Below, piece by piece: positions 16,388 through 61,590 of a stretch of 64,000 nt of DNA. Every line of letters starts with the position of its first letter. The stretch's first letter is position 1. A program made the position numbers and the translations under genes. The stretch is from positions 16,586 through 80,585 of the IMG/VR virus record IMGVR_UViG_2895221163_000002; one strand, given 5' to 3'. Source of the stretch: a virus. Lineage: Duplodnaviria; Caudoviricetes. The notes beneath the pieces were generated by a model. It was given only the letters and a program-made list of their open reading frames with translations. It was not told the origin of the DNA and did not search any database.

Positions 16388-16669
16388 CTAATAGGATGCG
16401 AGCCGGTATCCGGATCCGACGGGCTCAAGCACGCCACACTGGACGAGTGAGGGCAGAGCATCGCGAACCGCACCGGCATCCGCCGCCAGATAGCGGGCGA
16501 TGTCGTCTGACGTGGCACCGGTGCGGCCAGGCGCGCGGATGCTCGGCACGACGTCGCCGACATCCGTCAGCCCCAGCCAGATTGCCCGCGCCGCGAGCGA
16601 CAGGGGCTGCCAGCGTCGATCGGACATGACGGCCCGCGCGTGCTTTCCCGGACGCTCGCGGCGCGACAT
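16388..16669 (-). CDS. Small winged-helix protein of the replication module
   Basis: W..LSLAARAIW..L...IARYL...VRDALPSLVQCGVL; TGATG overlap with dnaB. Confidence 0.6.
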   Translation of the reverse strand: MSRRERPGKHARAVMSDRRWQPLSLAARAIWLGLTDVGDVVPSIRAPGRTGATSDDIARYLAADAGAVRDALPSLVQCGVLEPVGSGYRLASY

Positions 16670-54788: not shown

Positions 54789-55544
54789 ATGGAAAACTGT
54801 GGACTTGGCTATCAGAACGCCGTGCTCTCCGCCGTCCTGTCGGCCGACAGCGCCGCAGCCGCGCTGCCTGTCACAAACCTGACCTCCCCGCAGGGTAATC
54901 CGGCCTATGCCTGGCGAGCTGATGTCACGACAGCCAGCCTGACAGTGGCGCTGTCGCAGCGCGGGGGCGTTCGGGTTATCTCGGTGCATCGCACCAACCT
55001 GACGGCGCAGGCCAACTGGCGGATCGTCGTCAGCAATGTAGGCAACGTCCTGCACGATACGACCCAGCCCATGACGGCCGTGGCGGGTCAGGCTGTCTTC
55101 GTCCTGCCTGCCGAGCTGCAATGTGACGTCGTAGCGATCACGATCGCGGATCCAGACAATCCAGATGGGTATCTCTCGATCCCCCTGGCCTATGTCGGGC
55201 CGCTCTGGCAGCCAGTCCGCAATTTCTCCACCGACAGCAGCTCAGGCTTCAATTTCGGGGTCGATGAAGTGACGGCGCTGTCTGGCGCAGAGTTTCCGCA
55301 GATGCGCTGGATCCAGAGAAAGGCCTCGATCGCGCATCAGTCTTATGGCGCGGCGGAGACCGCGATCCTGCGGCAGATCCAGCGGGTCGCGGCATCTGGG
55401 GAGAATATTCTCTTCCTTCCGGACCCAGGGGCTGCGGCGCAGGAAGAAACCCTCTTCGGTCGCCTGAGTGGCGGCGACATTGGCAACCCTTACGGCTCTG
55501 CCGATCGGCGGAGCTGGACCTTTACCCTGACGGAGCGATTGTGA
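54789..55544 (+). CDS. Tail tip/distal tail protein
   Basis: Synteny; beta-rich; GPLWQP..NF motif. Confidence 0.55.
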   Translation: MENCGLGYQNAVLSAVLSADSAAAALPVTNLTSPQGNPAYAWRADVTTASLTVALSQRGGVRVISVHRTNLTAQANWRIVVSNVGNVLHDTTQPMTAVAGQAVFVLPAELQCDVVAITIADPDNPDGYLSIPLAYVGPLWQPVRNFSTDSSSGFNFGVDEVTALSGAEFPQMRWIQRKASIAHQSYGAAETAILRQIQRVAASGENILFLPDPGAAAQEETLFGRLSGGDIGNPYGSADRRSWTFTLTERL

Positions 55545-56623
55545 TGACCATGCTGGCCAATTTTGTTCTGGAGACTGCCAGCAGTCCGGGCGTCAGCAGT
55601 TTCGTGCTGAACGGCGCGGTCGCAGATCGGAGGGCATTTTCCCAGGCGTTTCCGGATGGCGGCCGGATCTTCTATTTCGCGGATGACGGAACGCAGGCGG
55701 AATGGGGCGTGGGAACGCTGACGATCGGCAATCCCTGCACGCTGGCCCGCAGCCGGGTGATCGGCAACACGCAGAATGGCACGGACCTGATGCGCTTCTC
55801 CGGAGGTGTGCAGGTCTATAACGAGATCCCGGCCGAGTTCCTGGTTCAGCTGGATGAAAACGGAGCTGTGAGCCTCAAATCGCTGACCGTGCTCTCCGAG
55901 CTTCTGGTCCCGCAGGTCTCGGACTGGAACAGCAATCAGGCTGTCAGGGCGGCAGATGCGAAGGGCTGGTTCGTCAAACAGGGCTGGAGTTTCAGTAATT
56001 TCGGCGGCAATGCAATCTACGTAGGCTGGCGCAATGACGGATCCGGTCTTGGCCTGGGTGTGGATCAGACAGATATCGGAACCTTTGCGCTCAAAGGTTG
56101 GGTTTCTGATAATTATGCGACCACGGTTCAGGTGAATACGGCGCTGTCGGCAGCAAATTCTGCCCAGGGCACAGGGAACGCTGCGTTGGCAGCTGCGAAC
56201 ACTGCGAACAGCACCAAGCTCGATGCCAATAACGGGCAAGCCACGGTTCTGAGTGTCTCATACGGGCCGAACAAGGCCTCCTTTCAGGGGGACGGAAATT
56301 TCGTTCTCTATGCCGGCATCAATGCTTTTTTCGCTGTCAGCACGTCTTCCATTAATTGGAACGGCCACGACTTTGTCTTCACGGAAGACCTGCCCACGGA
56401 TCCGGGACAGAAAATCGTCATGGACGTCGCGACAGGCGTTTCTTCAGGCGGCCGTGTGACCTTTGCTGTGCCGTTTTCGGATACGCCGAGGGTCATGGCC
56501 CAGAATTTCGGGAATGGTGACGTGAACTGCCACGCCTATGCACCAGACAAGAATGGCTTCTCGCTCCACATCAACAATGGCGGGACGACGGATATCACCT
56601 ACATCGCCAAGGGTCCGAAATAA
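55541..56623 (+). CDS. Tail fibre/receptor-binding protein
   Basis: N-terminal V.ET...G...L.GA, EWGVGT; C-terminal VTFAVPFS..P.V...F...YIA.G (H-lectin/gp53-like). Confidence 0.7.
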   Translation: MMTMLANFVLETASSPGVSSFVLNGAVADRRAFSQAFPDGGRIFYFADDGTQAEWGVGTLTIGNPCTLARSRVIGNTQNGTDLMRFSGGVQVYNEIPAEFLVQLDENGAVSLKSLTVLSELLVPQVSDWNSNQAVRAADAKGWFVKQGWSFSNFGGNAIYVGWRNDGSGLGLGVDQTDIGTFALKGWVSDNYATTVQVNTALSAANSAQGTGNAALAAANTANSTKLDANNGQATVLSVSYGPNKASFQGDGNFVLYAGINAFFAVSTSSINWNGHDFVFTEDLPTDPGQKIVMDVATGVSSGGRVTFAVPFSDTPRVMAQNFGNGDVNCHAYAPDKNGFSLHINNGGTTDITYIAKGPK

Positions 56624-56655
56624 GCGTCCCCCTGCTCTTCTGAATTCTTCTGTCT

Positions 56656-56679
56656 GCCGCCTTCAGGGTGGCTTTTTTT
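56656..56679 (+). terminator. Intrinsic terminator
   Basis: GCCGCC-TTCAG-GGTGGC-TTTTTTT. Confidence 0.6.
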
Positions 56680-56690
56680 ATGGAAAAACG

Positions 56691-57020
56691 ATGCCTGTTT
56701 CCCAAGCCACCGAAGACACTCTGTCCAGCCTGCGGGCCGAAATCCGCACCCTTCAGGATCGGACCCTCAAGCTCGAAACCTACGCGGACGGCCTGAACGA
56801 CAAGCACGACACTCTGCGAAGTGAAGTCCGCACGGAAATCGCCTCTCTCCGCAACCAGATCGCCAGTCTGGAAACGAAGATGGAAACGGCGAACAAGCAG
56901 ATCAACACGAAGCTGGACCGCCTGTTCGGTGCCCGCTCTGTCGTCACGGCTGCCATCACCCTGCTGACTTCAATTCTTGGATCCGGGGTCGTGCATCTAG
57001 TGGTCTCGATTGGGAAGTAA
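56691..57020 (+). CDS. Coiled-coil protein with C-terminal TM (holin/XhlA-like)
   Basis: Heptad repeats followed by a hydrophobic C-terminus; start of the lysis region. Confidence 0.55.
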   Translation: MPVSQATEDTLSSLRAEIRTLQDRTLKLETYADGLNDKHDTLRSEVRTEIASLRNQIASLETKMETANKQINTKLDRLFGARSVVTAAITLLTSILGSGVVHLVVSIGK

Positions 57021-57088
57021 GGTCAGGAATGGGGGGTAAGCCGAATGTCGGTTATAAGAGTAAGATGTTGAGAAAGCGGACAAGGCGC

Positions 57089-57117
57089 TTGCATATGCGC
57101 ACATTAATGACTATCAT
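57089..57117 (+). promoter_or_regulatory. Sigma70-type promoter
   Basis: TTGCAT-17 nt-TATCAT. Confidence 0.65.
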
Positions 57118-57123
57118 ACACCT

Positions 57124-57374
57124 AAGCTGATTAAAGACAGCTACAGTTTTTGCGTTATCCTAATTCGGGCCTTAGCCGTACACGCGGTGGAACGCTCAGT
57201 GGCTTGTAAGTCATATTATCGATGGTCATTTGATCTGTGGAAACCGGGTAACTAAAACTTTGAGTTTTGGGACTTTGGTGATCTTAAAGTTGGTACCACC
57301 AACTTATCGATGGAAAACGAAGGTAACGCAGCATATGTAAAGGGCGGCCAGTAAAGGCCGCCCTTTACTTTTTT
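57124..57374 (+). ncRNA. Putative structured non-coding RNA of about 250 nt
   Basis: Promoter upstream, strong terminator downstream, no substantial ORF, nested long-range helices and several hairpins. Confidence 0.55.
57337..57374. terminator. Strong, probably bidirectional terminator
   Basis: Perfect 13-bp stem GTAAAGGGCGGCC-AGTAAA-GGCCGCCCTTTAC followed by a T run. Confidence 0.85.
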
Positions 57375-58428
57375 ATTTTACAATATTTCCTGTTACGACA
57401 TCGCTGGGGAAGATATTAGTATGGTCACCACTAATGTTGATATTGCCTTTTGTTCTGCATGAAAACACTTGACGGTCAAACAGCCTTCCATCCTCGAATT
57501 GTGCATCATGCTGAAAACCCGCCGGTGTTAGGGGGGTGCCAAACCTATAGCGACTCTCTAGCGTGTGGTTAAGCAACATGGAGCGGACCTCTAGCGTCTC
57601 GTCCGGCTCAGCGCAGGCTTTGATAGTTGCTTCGTATTCAATCTCGTGAACGCCGCCGTCCTGACCAACGTTACTTTTGGCAAACACAATACCACGTGCA
57701 TCAATCGCGAAGCTTTTCCCACGCCCTCCCACACGCTTGTAAAACGCTTTCAAACGTTCGTAACAAAATTTTTCAATGATGATACCTTCTTCGATCTGAG
57801 CAATCCCAAGTTGATTTTCCATGAATGCGCGAAAGCGTCCGATCAACTGTTCTTGCCCATCCAAGTGAAAGTTTCGGCCAGGGAGCAGCAAAACGTCATC
57901 CGTCCGCCGAGCTTCAAGTCGTAGGCGCAGATCCCGGGCAGGCTCAGCATCCGCTGTGTCGATCGCATGCCGCAACAGCTGGGTTACTGTTTCGATGTTG
58001 TGACGCCAATGCATACCTTTCGGCCAAGACCAGTCAGGATGCTCAAGGCGGAGCGGCCACACTGCATGACCGAATACATGCCACAAGCGCTCGGATTGAG
58101 GGGCCGGGACATAGGCAACCACGATCCGGCTCGGAGTTGGAACTTTGTCGGCGCCTGGCCGGGCCTTCATAGCAAAACTGCAAACCTGTATTCCGAGGTC
58201 GAGAATGGCACGGTCTTTTGCGTAAATACGATCGTTTCCATTCGAGAAAGGAACTGCAATCGCTCGCCACTTAATAGTATCGTCGTTGTCAATCGTCGCT
58301 GCAGCAGCTTGGGCTGTGGTCTCAGGAAGGCCCGCAATTACAAGCAAAGGAGACGGACCAGGCGAGCCACGATTCTGGGATCGACCTGGCTGAGTCGATT
58401 TATTTCTCTTTCCCATATTCTTAGGCAT
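57373..58428 (-). CDS. Uncharacterised protein, possible toxin/nuclease effector
   Basis: Coupled (ATGCCTAA overlap) to the upstream gene; C-terminal RYRFG..GFQHDAQ...C...HTNIFPSD. Confidence 0.7.
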   Translation of the reverse strand: MPKNMGKRNKSTQPGRSQNRGSPGPSPLLVIAGLPETTAQAAAATIDNDDTIKWRAIAVPFSNGNDRIYAKDRAILDLGIQVCSFAMKARPGADKVPTPSRIVVAYVPAPQSERLWHVFGHAVWPLRLEHPDWSWPKGMHWRHNIETVTQLLRHAIDTADAEPARDLRLRLEARRTDDVLLLPGRNFHLDGQEQLIGRFRAFMENQLGIAQIEEGIIIEKFCYERLKAFYKRVGGRGKSFAIDARGIVFAKSNVGQDGGVHEIEYEATIKACAEPDETLEVRSMLLNHTLESRYRFGTPLTPAGFQHDAQFEDGRLFDRQVFSCRTKGNINISGDHTNIFPSDVVTGNIVK

Positions 58429-59095
58429 GCTTGAGCAAAATCTGAGCAATGTCGGCAGGAATAATTAATCCCGACATGATATCAGGGGATTGAGCGGCGA
58501 TTAGCCGGGCAAGCGCGTTACTGGTTTCGCCATTGCGAAACGTTTCTATATCAATGCCAATCTCTTGCGTCCAAGTGAGAAATAATCCCCAAAGTATGGC
58601 ACGCTCCTGAACTGAAGCATTACGGAGCGGGAGGCCGGGTCGGCGCAACGAGTTAGGGATAATGCGCTGGGTTGGGCGAATAAGATCTGGCACTGTGACT
58701 TTAGAGTAGCGGAATGGTCGGACTATATCGAGTGCAACATGCTCGGCGGCTTCGGTTCGTATACAGAATGCGAGTTTCACTGAGCTAGGCAAACCATCGA
58801 AAAAGTTTGCAGCCTGATGTTGGCTGGCGCTCTCTTGTTTGATTTCTAGTCCGACGCTGCCTGCAATTCCCGTCGGCGCTATGGTTTCGCGACCAATTGT
58901 TGTATCAACAAAACGAAGATTTTCTTCTCCTGCGGCCCGAACAGCGGCAGCCAAGGAACCGTAATCTGACTTCAATTGAGCGAGCAATTCTTTGTTGCTC
59001 TGCCCAAATCTGGACAGCAGCAACGGCTTTGGGTCCTGCTCCTCATAGTGCTCCTTAACTGCCTTAACGAGCGCTTCCAAAGTCTTTGACAACAA
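58421..59095 (-). CDS. Protein with N-terminal OST-HTH/LOTUS-like domain
   Basis: TTG start with AGGAG RBS; PLLLSRFGQ...YGSL.AAV resembles OST-HTH. Confidence 0.6.
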   Translation of the reverse strand: MLSKTLEALVKAVKEHYEEQDPKPLLLSRFGQSNKELLAQLKSDYGSLAAAVRAAGEENLRFVDTTIGRETIAPTGIAGSVGLEIKQESASQHQAANFFDGLPSSVKLAFCIRTEAAEHVALDIVRPFRYSKVTVPDLIRPTQRIIPNSLRRPGLPLRNASVQERAILWGLFLTWTQEIGIDIETFRNGETSNALARLIAAQSPDIMSGLIIPADIAQILLKHA

Positions 59096-59337
59096 TGTAT
59101 TTTCTCCTGCCTCGGAGTCTAAGAGACTACATAAATAGCTACGATGAGACTAATTTTTTCCATAGCATGAAACTCAAATAATAGACGAAAATGCCTCACC
59201 GCTGCTAATTATCTGATAACCCGATTCAACCACATGTCTTTAAGTCAGATTATGTCCGCTATGCGGAAATCAATATCACGGCCAGAGCGACCGGGATGAG
59301 GCGAAAGCCGCCATCCTGTCTGAAGCTCCCCCTGCCA

Positions 59338-59364
59338 AAGCCGCCCCAACCGGGCGGCTTTTTT
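59338..59364 (+). terminator. Intrinsic terminator
   Basis: AAGCCGCCC-CAACC-GGGCGGCTT-TTTT. Confidence 0.65.
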
Positions 59365-59377
59365 ATGGAAAATCCCC

Positions 59378-59881
59378 ATGAATAACACTGCCATCGTGTT
59401 GGCCACAGCGCTGCTGCGGCTGCCCGGGTTCGAAGGATTCCGGTCGAAGCCCTATGTCTGCCCCGCAGGATACTGGACAATCGGGTATGGCAGCCGTTGG
59501 CTGGCCAATGGACAGCCCGTCACGGACCGGACCGTCCCCATCGATCAGGCAGACGCAGGCAGCCTTCTACTCCAGACCGTAACGGCGCTCGATGTGGCAC
59601 TGTCCCGCCTGGTCCGGGTGGCGCTGTCAGACGTCCAGCGCGTAGCCCTGCTGTCCTGGCAATACAATGTCGGAACCGCCGCCGTCGAAAGCTCAACCCT
59701 GCTGCGCAAGCTGAATGCCGGTGACTATGCTGGCGCGGCCGACGAGCTGCTGCGCTGGGACAGGACCACCGTGCACGGACATCTGGTCGAACTGCCCGGC
59801 CTGAAGAGCCGCCGCGCCCGTGAGCGCGCGCTCTTTCTGGGCCTCATTCCTCCCCCAACACCGAAGGACAGGACCGTCTGA
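59378..59881 (+). CDS. Endolysin (GH24 phage lysozyme)
   Basis: FEGFRSKPY.CPAGYWTIGYG, YNVG, STLLRKLNAG and GL..RR..ER motifs. Confidence 0.93.
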   Translation: MNNTAIVLATALLRLPGFEGFRSKPYVCPAGYWTIGYGSRWLANGQPVTDRTVPIDQADAGSLLLQTVTALDVALSRLVRVALSDVQRVALLSWQYNVGTAAVESSTLLRKLNAGDYAGAADELLRWDRTTVHGHLVELPGLKSRRARERALFLGLIPPPTPKDRTV

Positions 59882-59961
59882 TGGCCCGGAATTTTACACC
59901 GACCCAAAAGTCCGCCATCGATAGACGGCAGCCCTTCCCTCAGCTCGGCATGGCCGGAGTC

Positions 59962-61590
59962 ATGAAAATGCGACTATTACATCTGACGCTTGCTCTGGCG
60001 TTTCTGACTGCTCCGTCGGCTTTTGGTCAAAGCATGCCGTCCTGGAAATCTGCCACCCAGACGGGAAACGTCAGGGATCTTGTACAGTCGGCGGGAAACG
60101 ACAATTCAGTTGCAGCGTGGCTAGGAAAGAAAGTTGACGTTAGTTCAATCAATCGGCCTAACGGGGTAGCAGGCTTGGATCATGATAAAAACCTGATCGC
60201 CAACACCTTCTCAAATTTTGCTGCTGTCTCTGGAAAGTCGTATCAATCCCTCGAAAACCAGATGCGATTACCGACCAATACGGTCACTTGTCCTGGAATA
60301 ACAGGGCCTAATGGGCGAAGTGGCGCATGTACAACGTTACTAAACGATGGATCAATCTTTAATACAACAAGTGGACCTGTCGGAAGTAATATAAACGTAG
60401 TTCAGCTGGATAACGCAGTAGGTGCTTCAGTTGGTCAGTTCATTGGAACCATAAATTACAGCACTACACAGCCGCTCTGGGCATTTAACATCGTGATGAA
60501 TCAAGCTCAGAATGCAGCGTTTGAATCTGGTATTGAATTGGATATGAACCGATCGATAACTGGTTGCTCAGTTCCGTTAGATGTCGATGTGGGAGCTGCA
60601 AACGGTTGTTCATCAATGACCGGCTTTTGGGCAACAGGTATCAATGCTTCTGGCACTACAGGCGGTGCTGCATACTATGCCACCATGAGTGGTACTGGCA
60701 CGCATGCTCCTCTATGGGCGGATGGCTTTGCTGCTGAAGCGAACTCCATTCGGGATACCGTATTCCTTGACAACACAGCGGCTCCTACGACCTTGAAGGC
60801 ATTAAATGGTCATTATGCAGGTATTGACTTCTCTAACGCTAAATTCTGGAATTCAGCCATAATGCTGGCAGATATCGGGTCATCCACACCCAATTTACCA
60901 ACTACACAGGGCATGTTCTGGACTACAACACCAACCGCGACCATTACCGGAGACCCAAAATTTACCGCATCCATATCTGGAGGCGGTGGTGCCGGCGCTC
61001 TGTTTTTCGATAGCAATAATAGCTTCTACTTTAATGTTGATAAAACCACTACGACAGACTTTGAAATTGGCTCACAAAAAACAATGAAAGATCTCGTTAT
61101 TGACGAGCATACTTCTGGCATTTCCAACGATTACGATGAGCGTTTGTACTTCTCTGGTGGCTTAGGTGCAGGTAGCATTACTGCAATTGCCCCAGCGCAC
61201 ATCACCGCAGCGACGAGTGTGTTTCAGGTTTACAATACTTCTACAAGTTCCGCAGACACGACTGACGTAGAAATAGGCTCCACAACTACAGCGCAGAGCA
61301 GCGCACTAAACTTTCATACTAGCGGATCTTCCAATACATATGATGCACAGATCGCTTCGAGCGGTGGAGATGGTCGATCAGGAAATAACGGCCAAGGGAA
61401 TCTGGCTCTCACAGCTTCGAGAATCAGTATTAACGGAGTTCTGAATATCCAAAGACTCACTAAAACTCAAATTCTCGGTATTTCTTCACCAGTTGAAGGC
61501 ACTATCGTAAACGACAGTGACGATCACGTGCCGGTCGTTTACGAAAATGGGCACTGGTATCCGATGACACTCGGACCCGCCCTTCAGTAA
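59962..61590 (+). CDS. Signal-peptide-bearing tail-fibre/adhesin-like protein
   Basis: MKMRLLHLTLALAFLTAPSAFG signal; NGVAGLD and repeated EIGS...HTSG..N.YD motifs; Ser/Thr/Asn-rich; lower GC. Confidence 0.65.
   Translation: MKMRLLHLTLALAFLTAPSAFGQSMPSWKSATQTGNVRDLVQSAGNDNSVAAWLGKKVDVSSINRPNGVAGLDHDKNLIANTFSNFAAVSGKSYQSLENQMRLPTNTVTCPGITGPNGRSGACTTLLNDGSIFNTTSGPVGSNINVVQLDNAVGASVGQFIGTINYSTTQPLWAFNIVMNQAQNAAFESGIELDMNRSITGCSVPLDVDVGAANGCSSMTGFWATGINASGTTGGAAYYATMSGTGTHAPLWADGFAAEANSIRDTVFLDNTAAPTTLKALNGHYAGIDFSNAKFWNSAIMLADIGSSTPNLPTTQGMFWTTTPTATITGDPKFTASISGGGGAGALFFDSNNSFYFNVDKTTTTDFEIGSQKTMKDLVIDEHTSGISNDYDERLYFSGGLGAGSITAIAPAHITAATSVFQVYNTSTSSADTTDVEIGSTTTAQSSALNFHTSGSSNTYDAQIASSGGDGRSGNNGQGNLALTASRISINGVLNIQRLTKTQILGISSPVEGTIVNDSDDHVPVVYENGHWYPMTLGPALQ

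Follow-up and report, generated by a model that had tools for sequence, protein, structure and literature searches.

A conserved structured RNA and the two new-fold proteins encoded beside it probably form an undescribed accessory module on mobile DNA

Several described bacterial systems set a noncoding RNA (ncRNA) gene beside protein genes on prophages or other mobile elements. In the type III toxin-antitoxin (TA) and RNA-controlled abortive-infection (Abi) systems, represented by ToxIN, CptIN, and TenpIN, a single protein effector is restrained by an RNA that is more abundant than the protein messengers, and infection is the trigger; the type III antitoxin consists of tandem direct repeats and is encoded upstream of the toxin on the same strand, with a terminator in between. 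The ncRNA-dependent defense systems, which include retrons, DRT2/DRT9, and UG27, rely on a structured ncRNA closed by a long-range helix that coevolves with its protein partner and is carried with accessory proteins in prophages and islands. In retrons, a reverse transcriptase is encoded beside an msr-msd RNA, which inverted repeats close and whose branching guanosine gives rise to msDNA. Large structured RNAs such as OLE with OapA/B/C, the HEARO/IscB omega-RNA, ROOL, GOLLD, and raiA are ornate, covarying molecules tied to specific protein genes or to mobile DNA, and in type I TA systems such as txpA/RatA and bsrG/SR4 of Bacillus subtilis, the antisense RNA is convergent to the toxin gene and overlaps its 3' end. 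A phage-encoded AbiF with an ncRNA has also been described in Clostridioides difficile (bioRxiv 10.1101/2025.04.15.648962). Here, we report on a 64,000-nucleotide stretch of Caudoviricetes DNA (IMG/VR record IMGVR_UViG_2895221163_000002, positions 16,586 to 80,585; hereafter the window, whose own numbering is used throughout), in which an RNA gene of ~250 nt at 57123..57374 on the plus strand faces a minus-strand operon of two protein genes that we call B and A. This element is almost certainly a conserved structured RNA gene tied to the B-A operon, and the RNA, B, and A together are probably a new RNA-protein accessory system.

The layout of the RNA gene had been sketched in a first-pass annotation made from the sequence alone, and our analysis located each of the elements proposed there. 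The putative promoter (57089..57117, plus strand) is composed of TTGCAT (57089-57094) and TATCAT (57112-57117) separated by the predicted 17-nt spacer, and the RNA start is predicted near 57124. A simple consensus promoter scan does not list this promoter because TTGCAT agrees with TTGACA at only three of six positions; nevertheless, 13 of the 20 distinct homologues share a -35-like CTTGC box in the alignment, and one more has CTTGAC. The RNA then folds into a 5' hairpin (P0), a closing helix (P1), a nested helix (P4), the internal helices P2, P2a, and P5-P7, the hairpins P3, P8, and P9, and a terminator, all on the plus strand. P0 (57125..57142) pairs AGCTG (57125-57129) with CAGCT (57138-57142), within one base of its expected place. 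P1 is formed by TGCGTTATC (57151..57159) and GGTAACGCA (57322..57330), exactly as claimed, and the arms of P4 are the two copies of TTATCGATGG (57216..57225 and 57304..57313), which pair with each other because of their ATCGAT core, the last bases of the first copy entering hairpin P5. Two further hairpins that had been pointed out, AAAACT/AGTTTT and AAGTTGGT-ACC-ACCAACTT, are both present in the minimum-free-energy fold, and the latter corresponds to P9 (57288..57306; seven modelled pairs, four with compensatory changes). At the 3' end lies an intrinsic terminator (57337..57375), a perfect 13-bp stem (57337-57349 / 57356-57368) followed by TTTTTT. The stop codon of gene A (57373-57375) falls within this T run, so that the terminator hairpin is common to the two convergent transcripts, as the annotation had recognized.

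Folding of 57118-57374 gave -89 kcal/mol compared with -65.7 +/- 4.5 kcal/mol for 200 dinucleotide shuffles (z = -5.2), and none of the 200 shuffles was as stable. Twenty distinct RNA sequences could be aligned with long invariant blocks and evident compensatory changes, and RNAalifold applied to a MAFFT-based alignment of these 20 sequences identified 55 pairs, 23 of them with compensatory double changes. A covariance model (R1) of this RNA, which we designate type 1, was built on 20 homologues and scored the window RNA at 208 bits (E = 2.5e-57). In the R1 alignment of 25 distinct sequences, which was fitted to the model structure and so favors it, 97.2% of the cells were paired and compensatory changes were found in 36 of the 55 pairs, in agreement with the MAFFT-based result. 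None of 500 column shuffles matched these values, and as a control, sliding the partners by 1-3 columns reduced pairing to 29-46%. Compensatory changes were found at the closing helix P1 (helices 1 and 2 of the model; four of six modelled pairs, with 98.7-100% of cells paired), at P4 (helix 5; five of seven pairs), and at the terminator (helix 10; seven of 12 pairs). P0, P3, and P8, which fall in insert columns, form single hairpins in 22, 21, and 21 of the 25 sequences despite differing sequence (for P0, the segment had to fold as one hairpin of at least 4 bp). Conservation is very strong in the internal loops and junctions, TTATCCTAATTCG and GGAAACCGGG being examples. The stability of the fold, together with the covariation seen among the homologues both by RNAalifold and in the R1 alignment, supports the multibranch structured ncRNA that the annotation had proposed.

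These data make it scarcely credible that the element is instead a small coding gene, a cis-regulatory 3' element of gene A, or a chance fold. A 36-codon open reading frame (ORF) does lie within the RNA gene at 57230-57340, but among the longest ORFs of the 25 homologous RNAs, none is conserved in strand, frame, or position, so the earlier judgment that there is no credible ORF holds. The compensatory changes and the fold z-score likewise argue against this explanation, as does the fact that the element is opposite in strand to A and has its own promoter-like box.

To the limit of our searches, the RNA is a new, undescribed class. A search of 55000-60000 on both strands with Rfam 15 (E <= 10) returned no family at its gathering threshold; the best overlapping match, MicX, reached 28.2 bits against a threshold of 75 and was driven by the terminator hairpin. 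Only subthreshold matches of the terminator type were thus returned, in agreement with the annotation's remark that no described family was recognizable. ARAGORN found no tRNA or tmRNA gene in the whole window. DNA searches gave no match to the RNA in a phage collection, showed it to be single-copy in its own genome, and returned only terminator-size matches in 200 genomes of the family. Full-text literature searches, with motif lists given only in supplements outside their scope, returned no description of the RNA or of proteins A and B, and the RNA was not found in the available parts of the Breaker-laboratory motif surveys (PMC11109978 and PMC8632094) or of a 2026 ncRNA-mining preprint (bioRxiv 10.64898/2026.09.22.753630). 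Literature matches to sequence motifs of the RNA were rejected as unrelated primers.

The partner proteins are also without described relatives. Gene A (57373..58416, minus strand) encodes 347 aa when read from the ATG that aligns with the starts of its homologues (the ORF is listed to 58449), and gene B (58421..59095, minus strand) encodes 224 aa with an N-terminal winged-helix-like domain; the stop codon of B lies 4 nt before the start of A, a spacing that suggests coupled translation. AlphaFold (AF2) modelled protein A with a pLDDT of 87.1 and a pTM of 0.84 and protein B with a pLDDT of 90.5. Neither protein matched Pfam, PHROG, PADLOC, or NCBIfam, and family-wide, none of 33 A-family and none of 26 B-family members matched Pfam. 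Foldseek searches of the Protein Data Bank (PDB) and BFVD yielded no match at E <= 0.001 for protein A and none of significance for B, PDB profile searches with both proteins were empty or at noise level, and the ESM Atlas gave no usable relative.

In the model of protein A, an alpha/beta domain of Rossmann/flavodoxin-like type at the N terminus is followed by a helical middle part and a C-terminal domain rich in beta structure. The motifs GFQHD.Q and H.N....D (H314, D315, H343, N345, and D350 being candidate catalytic residues) and a set of H, D, N, Q, and R residues are invariant, which suggests a metal-dependent active site and makes it plausible that A is an enzyme. Protein A is about 335-347 aa long in the homologous modules. 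A search of 1.84 billion representatives assigned 372 clusters (50% identity) to its family, 197 of them with E <= 1e-10. None of the 150 best listed is longer than 356 aa: full-length members span ~290-356 aa, the others are shorter fragments, and there are no fusions.

For protein B, the first-pass annotation had used the label OST-HTH/LOTUS-like, and this could not be established. The first ~75 residues of B are indeed modelled as a winged helix, and TDRD7 is among many weak fold matches; however, the match to the TDRD7 LOTUS domain (3rco_A) is nonsignificant (E = 1.4, probability 0.51, target-normalised TM-score 0.60 over 79 columns), and other winged helices, such as ASFV I73R and Reut_B4095, match B equally well or better. 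The OST-HTH profile (Pfam PF12872) matched none of the 26 B-family members at E <= 1.

A search with gene A returned 87 homologues, and 22 genome loci and 68 metagenome loci were collected; cultured Sphingomonas, Brevundimonas, and Aureimonas isolates are among the carriers (L008, L016, and L012). With the window RNA as the query, nhmmer gave matches in 23 loci, each immediately beyond the 3' end of A and on the other strand. R1 raised the count to 29 confident loci; these include diverged RNAs scoring 41-68 bits, for which nhmmer had given little or no signal. Loci in which A is at most 32% identical to the window A have no type-1 RNA. A second RNA, type 2, differs in sequence and has a similar size, the same place and orientation, and its own TTGAC box and terminator; RNAalifold identified 30 pairs in it, 18 of them compensatory. 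It is carried by distant A/B operons in Acidobacteria-type and other loci (L019-L025, L027, L047-L066, L068-L088, L090-L094, and L096; e.g., L021:4917-5181, minus strand), and a second covariance model, R2, found it at full length in 50 loci, one locus (L044) being matched by both models.

We scored 91 loci, several of which are identical copies, so that these are not 91 independent observations. Confident type-1 RNA was present in 29 and confident type-2 RNA in 50; in two loci, the RNA match is cut by a contig end, five are marginal (L026, L028, L041, L023, and L068), four have at most 173 nt of downstream sequence and are not judgeable, and one (L089) has no RNA match despite ~3 kb of downstream sequence. 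The homologous operons therefore do carry the RNA: in 79 of the 91 loci, a confident full-length RNA was found, always convergent to and abutting A, directly 3' of it. Of the 91 loci, 64 have a B homologue by tblastn, which in the loci checked lies upstream of A; many of the loci lacking a B match are cut by contig ends. Pairwise identity of the type-1 RNA correlates with protein A identity (Spearman 0.89), and none of 999 Mantel permutations was as high. The two RNA types follow the divergence of the proteins, and the RNA and the B-A operon are inherited as a unit in Alphaproteobacteria, Acidobacteria, and other lineages. Gene A was absent from all of 150 further genomes (one per family of the class), in which R1 gave only five weak matches of 24-28 bits, the level of matches to the terminator alone; the module is thus rare, and there was no convincing RNA-only genome among the 150.

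Two unusual arrangements were seen within this set. Locus L090 has two full-length type-2 RNAs within 3.6 kb (L090:639-899, minus strand, and L090:3370-3629, plus strand; 213 and 193 bits), which suggests two modules side by side. In two Ponticoccus/Citreicella contigs (L026:4158-4407 and L028:160-409, both minus strand), only the last ~50 residues of A are recognizable, there is no intact A ORF and no B, and an RNA match of ~20 bits has an intact-looking terminator; these may be decayed modules or orphan RNAs.

As a second line of evidence, we looked for the RNA in transcript data. Five metatranscriptome runs from two studies contain 5-7% of the words sampled from a 2.2-kb query. When four runs were mapped to 56900-59300, each gave exactly one contig lying wholly inside the RNA (57138-57347, 57183-57346, 57177-57347, and 57175-57338, with at most one mismatch each and the strand not given by the contigs), and no contig was found over 56900-57137 or 57348-59300, which hold the tail gene, A, and B. 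All four mapped runs thus show signs that the predicted RNA is transcribed. Being assembled contigs, the matches carry no strand, ends, level, or DNA-run control, and they hint at, but do not prove, a discrete transcript of comparatively high abundance.

The promoter-like box and terminator of its own, and the finding that the RNA is the sole part of the island seen in RNA contigs, would also fit an independent prophage or island small RNA, for example a regulator of host or phage genes, that merely travels beside B-A. We regard this as very unlikely, because the position and orientation of the RNA relative to A are fixed in the 79 confident loci, across phyla and in unrelated neighborhoods, because the RNA diverges in step with A, and because no confident RNA-only or protein-only genome occurred among the 150 sampled.

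We then compared the module with the described systems. It resembles type III TA and Abi systems in having an ncRNA gene beside protein genes on prophages and mobile elements, in the hint from the contigs that the RNA exceeds the protein messengers, and, in its proposed logic, in an RNA that restrains a protein effector and is triggered by infection. However, no tandem repeats were found in 56900-59400 (minimum score 30), where the sole internal direct repeat is the 10-nt P4 pair, and instead of repeats there is a single multibranch fold. Rather than preceding a toxin gene on the same strand, the RNA converges on A from the opposite strand and lies 3' of it, both in the window and at each of the 79 confident loci, and two proteins are present instead of one. 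No family of the ToxN/AbiQ/CptN/TenpN or AbiF type was matched by A or B in Pfam and PADLOC, or by the 33 A-family and 26 B-family members in Pfam. Like the RNAs of retrons and DRT systems, the RNA is closed by a long-range helix (P1), diverges with its protein partner, and is carried with proteins in prophages and islands, but Pfam and PDB fold searches found no reverse transcriptase or polymerase-like domain in A, B, or the immediate operon, and here the RNA is on the opposite strand. Lacking both tandem repeats and a reverse transcriptase partner, the RNA fits neither the type III antitoxins nor the RNAs of retrons. The likeness to OLE, HEARO, ROOL, GOLLD, and raiA is that of an ornate covarying RNA tied to specific protein genes or mobile DNA; the present RNA is smaller and matches no Rfam model, and A and B have no detectable homology to the Oap proteins, IscB, or other described families.

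The closest resemblance in layout is to type I TA systems, with convergent transcription and complementary 3' ends at a shared terminator, and it raises the question of whether the RNA is an antisense regulator of the B-A mRNA that would act through the 3' overlap or by pairing elsewhere, controlling mRNA stability or translation with no protein binding. The terminator hairpin and T run overlap the A stop codon, the shared terminator makes the two transcripts complementary over ~35 nt, and the abutting arrangement is likewise seen in the homologues. In contrast, ~210 nt of conserved, covarying structure, the bulk of the RNA, lies outside this short overlap, far beyond what an antisense RNA needs. 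The RNA body also shows no pairing signal with the start regions of B and A, its duplex energies being no better than with shuffled targets (28 tests over 14 loci, with z between -2.2 and +2.3, positive in 15 and negative in 13), and proteins of 224 aa and ~335-347 aa that look soluble are not the small hydrophobic membrane peptides of type I systems. An antisense role is therefore improbable, if less so than an independent small RNA.

In the window, RNA, A, and B are carried by a low-GC insert (57021..59336; GC 0.43-0.55, with one sampled segment at 0.59, versus ~0.62 in the flanks) that sits between prophage tail-region genes and a phage lysozyme gene (59378-59881, plus strand; profile match). 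The interval between tail and lysis genes is a typical spot for prophage accessory cargo. A search for a sister prophage lacking the insert gave one weak match only. Just upstream of the RNA, a 160-aa ORF (56538-57020, plus strand) has only coiled-coil-type Pfam/PHROG matches and a hydrophobic C-terminal end, and it may encode a tail-associated protein or a membrane protein of the prophage. On the other side, a perfect 10-bp hairpin, AAAGCCGCCC / GGGCGGCTTT, followed by TTTTTT (59337-59364, plus strand) ends 14 nt before the lysozyme start at 59378; the part of the insert that precedes it contains no plus-strand gene, and the hairpin may be the original tail-operon terminator, displaced by the insert. 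The 569-aa ORF right after the lysozyme gene (59881-61590, plus strand; weak tail-fibre match to phrog_25788, E = 2.3e-7; GC 0.44-0.54) is a second compositionally foreign segment of the prophage.

Elsewhere, the neighbors of the module vary and include integrase-type genes (L018 and L030), a MobA/MobL relaxase (L030), a HEPN-nucleotidyltransferase protein (L010), and a DUF5677 protein (L013). Among 150 de-replicated ORFs within 3 kb, we identified four phage integrases, two Zorya ZacC, one Lamassu LmuB, one type IIG restriction enzyme, two PDC-M27C, and two weak DrmD-like helicases; an NYN-domain protein and a Tle1-like phospholipase of the type VI secretion system are also among the neighbors. 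Such variable neighborhoods fit mobile islands that sometimes hold defense genes. Among plasmids, tblastn with A returned one distant match and one truncated copy. The latter (L115), on Agrobacterium leguminum plasmid p1 (NZ_CP119973.1:92779-93363), shares 60% identity with A over residues 19-217, carries the annotation hypothetical protein, and lies ~500 bp upstream of an IS110-family transposase gene.

The strongest competing explanation is a ribonucleoprotein enzyme that acts outside immunity or addiction. In such an enzyme, RNA-templated, RNA-guided, or RNA-modifying, the RNA would be a cofactor, template, or substrate and not an inhibitor, and it would serve the mobile element, in transfer, integration, or replication control, or host RNA metabolism. 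The linkage, codivergence, and conservation data fit this explanation equally; strongly conserved loops and junctions such as TTATCCTAATTCG and GGAAACCGGG are expected of a functional RNA core, A has enzyme-like invariant residues, and integrases and a relaxase occur nearby. On the other hand, wherever the RNA is variable, it forms base-paired hairpins, which leaves no obvious guide or template segment, and profile and fold searches identified no recognizable polymerase, recombinase, or nuclease domain in A or B. The module is also single-copy in its own genome, and it is found in scattered, unrelated insertion contexts rather than at element ends. We therefore consider this explanation doubtful, although it is better placed than the antisense alternative.

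We hypothesize instead that the module is an RNA-dependent anti-phage (abortive-infection) or addiction system of prophages and islands. The RNA would be bound by B and/or A, with B, through its N-terminal winged helix, as the likely nucleic-acid-binding adaptor, and would control or scaffold A, the probable metal-dependent enzyme; the abundant RNA may restrain the effector for as long as neither infection nor loss of the element upsets the RNA-protein balance. A ribonucleoprotein role in defense or TA, which the first-pass annotation had also favored, is what we infer from the context. The whole reading, a new RNA class that is the obligate third part of a mobile RNA-B-A module with a defense or addiction role, is in our estimate evenly poised between right and wrong. 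Its more specific form, an RNA-centered immune or addiction machine in which the ~250-nt RNA is a sensor or switch that licenses the novel-fold A via the adaptor B, with at least two codiversified RNA types and no homology to CRISPR, retron, type III TA, or catalogued defense systems, is put forward more tentatively.

Several points weigh against this reading. Besides the alignment that favors its own model structure, the identical copies among the loci, and the limited nature of the contig evidence, neither A nor B matched any toxin family, and at E <= 1, none of the 5027 models of PADLOC-DB 2.0.0 gave a family for either protein. Defense genes are a minority of the neighbors, ~8 of the 150 ORFs, a raw count that carries no background rate. 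No relative of A turned up in the IMG/VR viral contigs, scanned at the protein level, or in 50,697 phage records searched by tblastn, so the prophage location in the window may be an exception. A motif scan of viral contigs had pointed to 18 loci, which were rejected as chance (best R1 score 10.4 bits).

To our knowledge, it is rare to find a new, well-supported class of structured bacterial RNA whose conserved architecture exceeds 200 nt. In the present case, three newcomers that depend on one another occur together, an RNA that belongs to no Rfam family and two confidently folding proteins that have no fold relatives, in a module on mobile DNA that is partly found beside known defense systems. 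Whatever its function, the RNA is well suited to become a new Rfam family, with ~80 representatives, two subtypes, and a covariance model ready. If the RNA does control or scaffold the enzyme, the module would be a compact three-part system of ~2.3 kb, amenable to laboratory work, and a new design among the few RNA-dependent bacterial immune or addiction systems. Taken together, these results reveal a real RNA class, undescribed as far as our searches reach, with new-fold protein partners on mobile DNA, for which an RNA-dependent role in defense or addiction is the best-supported guess.

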